Assembly (NCBI GenBank): GCA_945929845.1
Contig: CAMEON010000003.1
Coordinates: 16,723-80,722 of the forward strand
Origin: an uncultured Clostridia bacterium
Lineage (GTDB): Bacteria > Bacillota > Clostridia > Oscillospirales > CAG-272
Direction of reading: 5' to 3'
Length of the DNA: 64,000 nucleotides
Shown here: one piece after another, positions 24,721 through 52,502 of the stretch
Position numbering within the stretch: the stretch's first letter is position 1
How the letters are laid out: the number at the start of each line of letters is the position of its first letter
The notes under the pieces: generated by a model
The model's database searches: none
Told to the model about the DNA's origin: nothing
The model's input: the letters and a program-made list of their open reading frames with translations, nothing else
Translations under genes and position numbers: made by a program

Positions 24721-24868
24721 AATTCTTTCTCCATTTACTGTTTACTGTTTGTTGAATTCGGCCTCCCGCACCTGCCATGCCCGGCCTGTGGAAAGCCATA
24801 CCTATTATACAACAAGCAGGAAATTCTGTCAAGGTTTTCCCGGAATTTATGAAAGTTTGGTAGGTTGA

Positions 24869-25031
24869 GGGAACGCCTGGGGGCTTCTTGAAGCGTACCG
24901 AATTTGAATAGAAACCTGTTTGAAAGTTCTTGGGGGTCTGAGTTCGGAAGTTTGCCGCATGGCAAACTTCATGCAATTGCACTGCGTCAGTGCAATTGCT
25001 GTTCTTATCAAGAAGCCCCCAGGCGTTCCCC
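24869..25031. repeat. Palindromic repeat unit related to the MITE family (copy E)
   Basis: Perfect 23-bp inverted repeat GGGAACGCCTGGGGGCTTCTTGA (24869-24891 / 25008-25030). It encloses two perfect hairpins (24947-24970 and 24973-24999). The inner module is nearly identical to 38892-38960. Confidence 0.85.
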
Positions 25032-25066
25032 ATGTACCCGTCTGACCAGGAAGTATGATAATACCC

Positions 25067-29989: not shown

Positions 29990-30030
29990 GGGCTTTTCTT
30001 AAAAAAATGTAAAATGCAATGAAAATGCGT

Positions 30031-30290
30031 GTTACAGTTCGTTACAGTTCAGGCGGGGGATGGGGATACGGTGGGAAACTTCTTGAAAGAAGTTTCCCAC
30101 ACCCTTCAAGAACTTTCAAAACATGTATTGTTTACTGTTCGGGGCGTTATTCTGTCATATATTTGCTATCATTTTCCCAGAGGAGCCAGCGTTACTGTTA
30201 CCCGAAATAGCAAAAACGCCCTCGCGGGGACCCCTATCCCCGCTCTACAGCGAAAAGGGGAGCGTACTACGGGGGTAGGTGAACGGTAAC
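30031..30290 (+). repeat. MITE-like repeat, full-length copy A
   Basis: Starts with tandem GTTACAGTTC GTTACAGTTC and ends GAACGGTAAC. About 85% identical by eye to 36365-36611 and to the reverse complement of 47118-47368. Flanked by AAAATGCGT / AGAATGCGT. Confidence 0.85.
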
Positions 30291-30345
30291 AGAATGCGTT
30301 ACCGTTGGCGGTTCGGCTATTTGGCTTTACAATGAACCCGGTGCA

Positions 30346-34202: not shown

Positions 34203-34417
34203 TGATTTTTCACAGTTCTCCGACATTTTCGGCAGGTTGTACAAAATGAGGGAGAATTTTGTGGCAGGTTGACGATTGAAAAAAAGTCGCCTGCTTTTCG
34301 CAAGCAAGTGTCTGTCGTGCATACATTGGTTTTTCAGGGAAATGCTGATTGCATGCGGAACTGTAACGAACTGTAGCCGAACCATAACGATTTTCGTGAC
34401 CAACCTCCGGAAATCCC

Positions 34418-36324: not shown

Positions 36325-36364
36325 CATCCCGCATCCTCCCCCGTGGAGGGTGCGGGATCTTTTG
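36325..36364 (+). terminator. Strong rho-independent terminator 250 nt downstream of rny
   Basis: ATCCCGCATCCTCC-cccgt-GGAGGGTGCGGGAT followed by CTTTT. Confidence 0.8.
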
Positions 36365-36611
36365 GTTACAGTTCAGGTAGGGTACGGGAGAACGCCTGGG
36401 GGCTTCTTGAAAGAAGCCCCCAGACCCCCAAGAACTTTCAAAACATGTATTGTGTATGATTCGGAGCGTTATTCTGTCATATATTTGCTATCATTTTCCC
36501 AGAGGAGCCGGCGTTACTGTTACCCGAAATAGCAAAAACGCCTTCGCGGGGCCCCTCGCCCCGCTCTACGGCGGAAAAGGGAGCGCACGGCGGGGGCAGG
36601 TAAACTGTAAC
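36365..36611 (+). repeat. MITE-like repeat, full-length copy B
   Basis: GTTACAGTTCAGG...CAGGTAAACTGTAAC. Internal perfect hairpins at 36398-36421 and 36546-36564. Flanks are GATCTTTTG / GATCCTTTC. Confidence 0.85.
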
Positions 36612-36652
36612 GATCCTTTCGTGTGGCGGTTGCTCACAGGGAAATATGCCTC

Positions 36653-38766: not shown

Positions 38767-38891
38767 ATGCTTCTCCTCCGTTCATGCAGTGATCCTATGG
38801 ACTGGTAGAGTGTATGCGGCGGGCAGGAAAAGTATGATTCAGTCAGAAAACTGTCGCCGGAATTGTGGTCGATATATGACCGTACCCTTGC

Positions 38892-39046
38892 TTTGAAAGT
38901 TCTTGGGGGTCTGGGTTCAGAAGTTTGCCGCATGGCAAACTTCATGCACTGGCAACATCCGGCATCGCCGGTGGAGCCAGTGCTGTTCTTCTCAAGAAGC
39001 CCCCAGGCGTTCTCCTCCCCCACCTGAACTGTAACCGTACTGTAAC
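38892..39046 (-). repeat. Partial or derived MITE copy D. One end has an expanded hairpin and finishes with GAACTGTAAC-c-GTACTGTAAC.
   Basis: TTTGAAAGTTCTTGGGGGTCTGG...CAAGAAGCCCCCAGGCGTTCTCC...CACCTGAACTGTAAC matches the reverse complement of the copy B 5' end. It shares the GAAGTTTGCCGCATGGCAAACTTC hairpin with copy E. Confidence 0.8.
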
Positions 39047-39073
39047 AAATTTTTCAGAATTTTTCGATTTTTA

Positions 39074-41244: not shown

Positions 41245-41312
41245 AGGACGAGGGGAACGATGGGGGGACTTTCTATAGAAAGTCCCCCCGAACCCCTTCA
41301 AAGACTTTTCAC
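41245..41312 (+). repeat. Partial MITE-related copy G (hairpin-1 module only)
   Basis: GGGGGGACTTTCT-ata-GAAAGTCCCCCC perfect hairpin followed by CCCCTTCAAAGACTTTTCAC. This parallels GGGAAACTTCTT-gaa-AGAAGTTTCCC + CCCTTCAAGAACTTTCAAAAC in copy A. Confidence 0.6.
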
Positions 41313-41348
41313 GCATGGTTATCATTCAGAAAAAATTTCTGAAACCCC

Positions 41349-47079: not shown

Positions 47080-47117
47080 TACTTTTTTCAAAAAATGTCC
47101 CGGTCGGCTTCAGCCTT

Positions 47118-47368
47118 GTTACAGTTCACCTACCCCCCGCCGTGCGCTCCCTTTTCCGCCGTAGAGCGGGGCGAGGGGCCCCCGCGAAGGCGTTTCTGCT
47201 GTTTTGGGCATCAGCAACGCTGGCTCCTTTGGAAAAACGACAACAAATATATGACAGAATAACGCTTCGAATCATACACAATACCTGTTTTGAAAGTTCT
47301 TGAGGGGTGTGGGGAACTTCTTTCAAGAAGTTCCCCACCGCATCCCGTACCCCCACTTGAACTGTAAC
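47118..47368 (-). repeat. MITE-like repeat, full-length copy C (inverted orientation)
   Basis: GTTACAGTTCACC...CTTGAACTGTAAC. The hairpins are at 47311-47336 and 47166-47185. It is flanked by CAGCCTT on both sides. Confidence 0.85.
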
Positions 47369-47653
47369 CAGCCTTGTTACAGTTCAACCAGGCGGCTTTG
47401 AAACAATCGCATAACCTCATGCTTCATATGTGTCATACTTTGCATTTCGGACGGATATGGAATCTGCCCCAATAACGGTAGGGGCGAACTGTGTTCGCCC
47501 GCATGGAACTGGGCGACCACATCCGTATACGGCGGTCGCCCCTACCATTGTAAAAACCTGTACGGAATATCATATGATACGGTTATTCCACGGCCACCAG
47601 GCTGAACTGTAAAACCTGAACTGTAATTTTTATATAAAGTGCGATGAAGCCTC

Positions 47654-47703
47654 TTGACAAATACCCTCCGGGGGTATATAATATACATACCCTCCGGGGG
47701 TAT
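47654..47703 (+). promoter_or_regulatory. csoR-copA promoter with two CsoR operator copies
   Basis: TTGACA (47654-47659), 17 nt, TATAAT (47677-47682). ATACCCTCCGGGGGTAT occurs twice (47661-47677 and 47687-47703) and matches the B. subtilis copZA CsoR operator TACCC-N-GGGGGTA as recalled. Confidence 0.8.
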
Positions 47704-47721
47704 TTGAAAGGAGAAAACCGT

Positions 47722-50781: not shown

Positions 50782-50853
50782 GTTACAGTTCAGGTAGGGT
50801 ACGGGAGAACACCAGGGCTGTTCTTCTCAAGAAGTTCCCCACCGTATCCTTCG
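50782..50853 (+). repeat. Truncated MITE copy F (5' end only)
   Basis: GTTACAGTTCAGGTAGGGTACGGGAGAAC is identical to the start of copy B. It is followed by a degenerate right hairpin arm, CTCAAGAAGTTCCCC. Confidence 0.75.
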
Positions 50854-52284: not shown

Positions 52285-52450
52285 AAACGCCCGGGCAGGA
52301 CAAAAGCCGCCGGGCTGACACCGCTTTTATCTTCTCCCATCCAGACTGTAACTGTCGATGCAGGAATTGCACCTGCTCAGCCTGCGCCGTGTGGCACAGG
52401 GTCGCGGATTTTTACCGCCGGTATGGAATTTCACCAATCCCCGAATATTT
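52285..52450 (-). promoter_or_regulatory. Cobalamin-riboswitch-like aptamer. The expression platform continues to the RBS at about 52175.
   Basis: Minus strand: GGGGATTGGTGAAATTCCATACCGGCGGTAA...GCGA, ...ACAGT...GGATGGGAGAAG and the B12-box-like CAGCCCGG...GTCCTGCCCGG. These have the same order and wording as E. coli btuB (GGGAATCCAGTGCGAATCTGG..CGCAGCGGTAA..GCGA, CACTGCC..GGTGGGAAG, AAGCCCGAAGACCTGCCGG) as recalled. Confidence 0.6.
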
Positions 52451-52502
52451 TTAATTAGAAATCATTGGATCCCCTGCCCGGTTCCCCGGTGCGGTGGGTG
52501 CG

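Follow-up and report, generated by a model that had tools for sequence, protein, structure and literature searches.

A mobile repeat of an uncultured gut bacterium carries a sequence-variable perfect palindrome that is probably renewed by template switching and is replaced by an IS1182-family element

Bacterial MITEs with stem-loops include the Correia/NEMIS elements of Neisseria, the ERIC/IRU elements of enterobacteria, and the RUP and BOX elements of Streptococcus pneumoniae. Palindromic repeats are also targeted by insertion sequences of the IS3 and IS110 families, with IS1397 and ISKpn1 targeting REP-BIMEs and ISPpu9/10 targeting the REPs of Pseudomonas, and quasipalindrome correction occurs in E. 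coli. IS1272, an IS1182-family element of Staphylococcus, replaces 22-30-bp inverted repeats of differing sequence without generating duplications, and TnSha1/2 are cited as further stem-loop-replacing cases in the same study (PMC5678879). Template-switch mutation makes both arms of a stem match in one event and has loop inversion as a signature (PMC8794818).

The DNA analyzed here is a stretch of 64,000 nucleotides (hereafter the window) from an uncultured gut bacterium with a G+C content of about 58%; a hint of its affiliation comes from a transposase, labelled Acutalibacteraceae, at 77% identity. The window contains three full copies (A, B and C) and four partial or rearranged copies of a repeat of ~250 bp. 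Copy B (36365-36611, + strand, 247 bp) aligns end to end with copy A (30031/30041-30290, + strand), in which the left end opens with a tandem duplication of its initial 10 nt (30031-30040), and with copy C (47118-47368, - strand). The ends read GTTACAGTTCA(GG) on the left and (CC)TGAACTGTAAC on the right and form 11-13-bp terminal inverted repeats, which in copy B lie at 36365-36377 (GTTACAGTTCAGG, + strand) and 36599-36611; the window holds 14 matches to GTTACAGTTCA with at most one mismatch, compared with 0.32 expected. Elements are 247-253 bp long, or 305 bp in a long form. Among the incomplete copies, relic copy G (41250-41319, + strand) retains only the block around an internal palindrome (hairpin 1) and has no terminal repeats. 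The partial copy at 38889-39035 (- strand) comprises the left end and a long, cloverleaf version of the hairpin-1 cassette with an extra perfect palindrome, H3, at 38920-38943. The truncated copy at 24860-25049 (- strand) has the long cassette with H3 at 24947-24970 and another palindrome, H2, at 24973-24999, and its left-arm block is duplicated in inverted orientation (24870-24892/25008-25031). A solo left end (50782-50850, + strand) is fused head to head with the reverse complement of another left-end block. The inverted-duplication junctions of the last two copies lie at the hairpin, and both rearranged fragments are conserved in other strains.

The copies all lie between genes, in many cases directly past a terminator or ahead of a promoter. 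Copy C lies about 270 bp upstream of two palindromic boxes ATACCCTCCGGGGGTAT (47655-47710) that overlap the promoter of an operon for a CsoR-like repressor and a copper ATPase, and these boxes are probably the CsoR operator. Elsewhere in the window, an FMN riboswitch (Rfam RF00050, 102 bits; 52325-52452, - strand) is found upstream of an ECF riboflavin-transporter-like gene.

We compared the window with 42 loci (535 kb) on same-species contigs in public assemblies, picked by exact matches to the window's RNase Y, NusG, ABC ATPase and ribosomal protein S7; these are mostly metagenome contigs, in which repeats can be mis-joined. A profile search of the 535 kb returned 85 matches, 66 of them distinct. 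Copy A alone contains an 86-codon ORF, which is not common to copy B, and there is no transposase gene in the element. The repeat is a non-autonomous DNA transposon (MITE), by its anatomy of a new family. No autonomous insertion sequence (IS) with the same ends is present in the window or the 42 loci. A 20-mer pattern scan of a genome-contig collection returned only a chance match in a Prevotellaceae MAG; scans for MITE copies or a parent IS yielded one metagenome contig (L022) with one copy and no viral contig, and a literature search with the terminal repeat sequence retrieved unrelated primers only. Readings of the repeat as an IS200/IS605-type element (PATE) or an IS110 bridge RNA were dropped because classical terminal inverted repeats bound the MITE and its target duplication is 8 bp long.

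The MITE is currently mobile in the species. Copy B is flanked on the left by the 8-bp target duplication GATCTTTT (36356-36363) and on the right (36612-36619) by GATCCTTT in the window and GATCTTTT in L002. Site B is empty and reads GGGATCTTTTCGTG in nine loci (L003, L005, L006, L007, L008, L012, L013, L016 and L024), and is occupied in the window, L002, L004 and L009, where it reads GATCTTTT-element-GATC(C/T)TTT. The target duplications are about AAATGCGT/GAATGCGT for copy A (30023-30030 and 30292-30299) and CAGCCTT for copy C (47111-47117 and 47369-47375), and three other insertions have perfect 8-bp duplications (TATGGTTC, CAAGGCTG and AGCCTTGT). In some strains (L023, L017 and L014), sites A (30.0 kb), B (36.4 kb) and C (47.1 kb) carry a diverged-subfamily copy in the opposite orientation, with the target duplication shifted by 1-2 bp at sites B and C, the two at which both junctions can be read; these copies are therefore independent insertions, and the three sites are strong insertion hot spots. 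The first-pass annotation of this locus had argued against the simple decay of a dead repeat, a premise that is wrong, since sister strains show both unoccupied sites and insertions that arose independently.

Hybrid alleles at sites A and B represent segments exchanged between copies by recombination, some of them possibly metagenome mis-assemblies. Three elements (L004:9184-9434, L028:4644-4893 and L030:627-879) have non-matching flanks and no duplication, as a result of either inter-copy recombination, that is, genome rearrangement, or metagenome mis-assembly at the repeat. The terminal decamer GTTACAGTTC also occurs solo or in tandem in the window (30031-30041, 34357-34390, 39025-39050, 47376-47386 and 47603-47627), adjoining insertion sites and preceding -35 boxes by 40-60 nt. 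The insertions at sites A and C and an L003 insertion at ~34380 lie immediately 5' of this motif. The transposase may target such ends, or the motif may be left over from older copies or be bound by a host factor.

Hairpin 1 is a palindrome of 26-30 bp located about 30 nt inside the left end of the MITE. It reads GGGAAACTTCTT-GA-AAGAAGTTTCCC in copy A (30073-30098; full perfect arms 30071-30100) and GGGGGCTTCTT-GA-AAGAAGCCCCC in copy B (36398-36421), where the full perfect arms extend over 36396-36423 as CTGGGGGCTTCTT-GA-AAGAAGCCCCCAG. In copy C it occupies 47311-47336 (full perfect arms 47309-47338), and in relic G it is a perfect 14+14 palindrome of 28 nt (41262-41289). The first-pass annotation had recorded perfect stems of differing sequence in these four copies, which we confirm at these coordinates; the stems had been drawn too short, as the perfect arms reach 13-14 bp in all four, and the loop given as gaa is really a 2-nt GA center, with no loop at all in copy G. 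In the window, 12 inverted repeats are perfect over arms of 10 nt or longer, compared with 0-1 in shuffled sequences. Seven of the 12 belong to the MITE family, the four longest being hairpin 1 of copies A, B, C and G, and ordinary terminators make up about a third of the window's long perfect palindromes. Folded as DNA, hairpin 1 has energies of -13.6 to -14.4 kcal/mol and z-scores of -5.2 to -6.5.

Six distinct short palindromes are found at the homologous position, namely those of copies A, B and C, a B variant with a GT center, copy G and L037; their arms measure 13-15 nt and their loops 0-2 nt. In their alignment, both sides are changed in 8 of 14 pairs and one side only in none, and the resulting covariation score is reached by 0/500 shuffles; 97.6% of the cells are paired, compared with 80.5% in shuffles. 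All changes among the six variants are Watson-Crick mirrored, without G.T intermediates or one-sided states, and no G-U pair occurs among the 84 cells except at one outermost position. Differences in length are mirrored as well, as the G/C-run arms measure 11 nt in the B variant and 12 nt in A and C on both sides. Short-form copies are perfect in every strain seen. The flanks of relic G differ from the family consensus and, through SNPs, between strains, with no SNP in the palindrome, and the element at L037:146, which has no usable terminal repeats, still contains a perfect palindrome of different sequence.

Hairpin 2, a second stem with an invariant GCGGGG/CCCCGC core, is found at 30224-30243 (copy A), 36546-36564 (copy B, + strand) and 47166-47185 (copy C). 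In 24 distinct right halves from related strains, its six outer pairs do not vary and, being invariant, are uninformative on structure. The one variable pair, the seventh, is A-U in 4 copies, C-G in 2, G-U in 2 and unpaired in 11, and the five remaining rows, which are gapped, add 4 C-G and 1 C.T when counted by eye; at site A, this pair is A.G in L024 and A-T in the window. The A-T to C-G double change proposed in the first pass thus concerns stems that do exist, but only a single loop-adjacent pair that is unpaired in 11 of 24 copies, and the sequence then given for copy C (GCGGGGC...GCCCCGC) overlooks an extra G that makes this pair G.G unless one base bulges. Whereas covariation across copies is borne out for hairpin 1 (0/500 shuffles), 238/500 column shuffles score as well as the observed hairpin-2 alignment, and there is no compensatory evolution in hairpin 2. 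No part of the right half is better conserved than the hairpin-2 block (92% mean pairwise identity, compared with 75% in the center), and this sub-terminal block is probably conserved as a sequence, perhaps as a binding site for a transposase.

By contrast, the sequence at the hairpin-1 position is hypervariable, a cassette that consists of a short palindrome, of a cloverleaf form 58 nt longer, or of an IS in its place. At site B, the 28-nt palindrome of the window is matched in L002 and L009 by a form 58 nt longer, with identical element flanks. The long form contains two further perfect palindromes, H2 (GCAATTGCACTG-NNNN-CAGTGCAATTGC) and H3 (GAAGTTTGCC-GTAC-GGCAAACTTC), and folds as DNA into a cloverleaf of an outer stem and three hairpins (-30 to -32 kcal/mol, z = -8.6). 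Elements with this 58-nt insertion in the hairpin occur at at least five different sites. At site G, which has the relic palindrome in the window, L019 and L017 carry A-type and long-type cassettes together with the rest of the element. At site B, the H2 loop is inverted between strains, TACG in L002 against CGTA in L009 (each the reverse complement of the other), in a stretch that is otherwise identical. A single unmirrored change was found, in H3 of L023 (GAAGTCTGCC/GGCAAACTTC).

The third state of the cassette is exemplified by L022, in which a 1.9-kb insertion sequence (L022:1036-2939) with ends GGAGCCGTAAAAAA(A)GTC, also given as GGAGCCGTAAAAAAGTC, lies inside a MITE copy. Its 526-aa transposase matches the NCBIfam model NF033551, 'IS1182 family transposase', at 277.7 bits (cut-off 270) and the Pfam families DUF772, DDE_Tnp_1 and DDE_Tnp_1_6. 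A search of the 535 kb of strain contigs with the IS ends found eight junctions, all abutting the MITE at the usual place of the palindrome, seven at hairpin 1 and one at H3, and L043 provides one more; the loci besides L022 are L003, L014, L017, L021, L027, L038 and L043. These junctions go back to five or six independent insertions, each of them in the MITE family. Three junction pairs are complete, one on a single contig (L022; GGGGATACT-IS-ACCCTTCAAG) and two each spread over two contigs of one sample (L003+L027, GAACGCCT-IS-AGACCCCC, where the intact element reads GAACGCCT-GGGGGCTTCTTGAAAGAAGCCCCC-AGACCCCC; and L038+L017, GGGATGCG-IS-ACCCCTCAAG). In all three, the 24-30-bp palindrome is absent and the flanks are unrepeated, showing an exact replacement of the palindrome by the IS with no target duplication. 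By analogy with IS1272, the IS1182-family element would excise the whole stem-loop and take over its place. Because the IS replaces the palindrome as IS1272 replaces stem-loops, this likeness suggests that the palindrome is extruded or recognized as a structure in vivo. The first-pass idea of a DNA hairpin recognized during mobilization gains indirect support in its structural part, although for a different transposon.

We rejected the possibility that the palindrome is itself a miniature derivative or an excision footprint of the IS1182 element, because its arms have the opposite polarity, with the G-run outside and an A/T-rich center, and lack the IS tips GGAGCCGT. One IS end contains AAAAAAAGTCCCCC, which resembles the palindrome arms and shares 10 nt (AAAGTCCCCC) with copy G, a likeness that could be target mimicry or chance. 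It is conceivable, if on the unlikely side, that the cassette is a self-renewing structural module through which the MITE acts as a dedicated landing pad for the IS1182-family element. It would possibly do so by resembling the sub-terminal A-run/GTCCCCC motif found in one end of the IS, and it might also be what the MITE's own transposase recognizes in a structure-specific way. If true, this would amount to a two-tier parasitic system in which the MITE supplies safe harbors for the IS.

How the arms stay complementary is best explained, in our opinion, by fold-back template switching (quasipalindrome correction), in which one arm would periodically be recopied from the other during replication or repair. 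Substitutions and changes in length that are mirrored in both arms, inverted loops and the conversion of a long into a short form could each result from a single switch. The variants display what such a process would leave behind, as multi-base changes are mirrored, a loop is inverted and one-sided intermediates are missing, with L023 H3 as the one counter-example. Complementarity also extends to the innermost positions, including those of the zero-loop palindrome in copy G, which are sterically unable to pair; the folding program leaves the last pair open, and selection for stability would give no reason to keep such positions matched. Relic G is still perfect despite its missing terminal repeats and diverged flanks, and the inverted-duplication junctions fall at the hairpin, two further observations in favor of template switching. 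By inspection, the short allele of the window corresponds to the product of a single fold-back on the long L002 allele at site B. Synthesis would proceed to ...CCTGGGGGCTTCTTGA (a start on the long allele that can also be written ...CTTCTTGA), the nascent arm would be copied back as AAGAAGCCCCCAG, and synthesis would return at the microhomology CCCAG. A slipped deletion between the direct repeats AACTTCT would not yield the observed short form.

Template switching, read from these patterns rather than from events reconstructed on a tree, is thus the most likely origin of the matched arms, and we prefer it to a stepwise course of compensatory substitutions driven by selection. Independent mirrored events are few, perhaps only 4-5, because the copies recombine and a variant could spread by gene conversion. 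Purifying selection on a needed structure would likewise produce perfect stems. Of the first-pass proposal that the structure itself is under selection, active maintenance of stem symmetry is borne out for hairpin 1 and not for hairpin 2; selection on structure may still act on hairpin 1, although the pattern does not require it, and is unsupported for hairpin 2. Taking the evidence together, we consider it reasonably probable that the repeat is a mobile MITE in which hairpin 1 is kept perfect by fold-back template switching and is subject to replacement by an IS, and in which hairpin 2 is uncompensated.

Three other explanations deserve consideration. Hairpin 1 might be a cis-acting DNA structure needed for the mobilization of the MITE itself, its cruciform being recognized by a transposase or a host factor, such that elements with unpaired arms stop spreading and live copies show perfect stems only. 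The left end is indeed far better conserved than the center, the left 90 nt including the palindrome (of B type) being identical in elements whose centers share only 55-75% identity, as would be expected if a cis-acting end were under selection; the palindrome is perfect in all full-length copies, and another transposase appears to recognize the palindrome as a structure. However, relic G and L037:146 keep perfect palindromes of different sequences without usable terminal repeats, and the perfection of relic G, end-less and with diverged flanks, speaks against mobility selection being the sole force. Moreover, the 58-nt cloverleaf elements show that a simple hairpin is not required, the symmetry reaches positions that are unable to pair, and the MITE has no known transposase, so we regard this explanation as unlikely. 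Still less credible, and in our view highly improbable, is that the apparent compensation is a few-lineage artefact, with three or four founders, palindromic by chance, amplified by transposition and gene conversion and no longer maintained. Only six distinct palindromes are known, few positions distinguish those of A, B and C, and mosaic alleles attest to frequent exchange between copies; yet each founder would need a perfect palindrome of 26-30 nt, of a kind (arms of at least 10 nt) that shuffles produce 0-1 times per 64 kb, relic G has accumulated no arm mismatches beside its diverged flanks, and the alternation of long and short forms together with loop inversion at one locus shows ongoing change.

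The third explanation, that hairpin 1 and the element form a structured RNA co-transcribed with the neighboring genes and selected at the level of the host as a 3'-end stabilizer of mRNA, RNase site or attenuator in the manner of REP, Correia or ERIC elements, is improbable. It would accommodate the intergenic positions of the copies past terminators or ahead of promoters and the perfection of the immobile relic G, and the whole element folds as RNA with z-scores of about -3 on both strands. RNAalifold further predicts a right-half helix TTTGCTAT/ATAGCAAA (36484-36491/36529-36536, at homologous positions in A and C) whose pairs vary among 24 copies through U-G-compatible states (U-A/U-G, C-G/U-G/U-A and A-U/G-C), as could occur in an RNA from the element's + strand. 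The consensus structure that includes this helix is paired in 96.4% of cells and matched by 3/500 shuffles (3-15/500 for its overall support), values within the range that relatedness alone can give, and this long-range helix is at most a weak lead to a candidate RNA structure. For hairpin 1 itself, the proposal of the first pass that it may act as a structured RNA did not hold up. Rfam searches at both gathering and E<=10 thresholds returned only noise for the element, no sigma-70-like promoter was detected in or around copy B, and on neither strand is the stem followed by a T/U run, the sequences past the stems being ACCCCCAAGA, ACCCTTCAAG or GAACCCCTTC; the terminator scan marks the RNase Y terminator at 36326-36358 and not hairpin 1. 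RNA stems seldom lack G-U pairs to this degree, and loops as short as 0-2 nt are characteristic of DNA palindromes.

Under the favored template-switching explanation, perfect stems of differing sequence are not in themselves evidence of selection on an RNA or DNA structure, as arm-copying mutation looks alike. The family offers a natural system for three questions that are otherwise difficult to address, namely for how long a bacterial genome retains a perfect palindrome, by what means IS1182-family elements select and remove stem-loops, and how MITEs and IS elements nest. These elements also break metagenome assemblies and create hybrid alleles, and knowledge of their anatomy aids strain-level analysis of the species.

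The MITE resembles the Correia, ERIC, RUP and BOX elements in its length of ~250 bp, terminal inverted repeats, target duplication, intergenic multicopy distribution, presence or absence among strains and strong predicted folding, and it shares with ERIC the generation of size variants through insertions at a fixed internal point. It differs from Correia elements in its duplication of about 8 bp instead of TA, shows no sequence similarity to the repeats listed in Rfam, and is set apart from all four families by a perfect, sequence-variable palindrome or cloverleaf cassette that is targeted by another IS. Like the REP-targeting elements, the IS found here lands in a dispersed palindromic repeat that is 'safe' to occupy, but the palindrome is entered and kept in those systems and excised and replaced in this one. 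The closer parallel is IS1272, which has an IS1182-family transposase, targets variable inverted repeats of 22-30 bp, and replaces the stem-loop without duplication (PMC5678879). The kinship is at the family level, by profile, and the hosts differ, Staphylococcus in one case and an uncultured bacterium of ~58% G+C in the other; IS1272 targets scattered terminator-like repeats, whereas the five to six independent insertions described here are all in one MITE family. The multi-base mirrored changes, one-step Watson-Crick stems and loop inversion agree with template-switch mutation as described (PMC8794818), with the difference that the process here would be repeated, take place within a mobile element and also interconvert 28-nt and 86-nt forms. 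MITE transposition, template-switch maintenance of palindromes and IS1182-type stem-loop replacement are each known mechanisms; their combination is new, and the novelty lies in a MITE with a renewable palindrome or cloverleaf cassette that is the recurrent target of a second IS.
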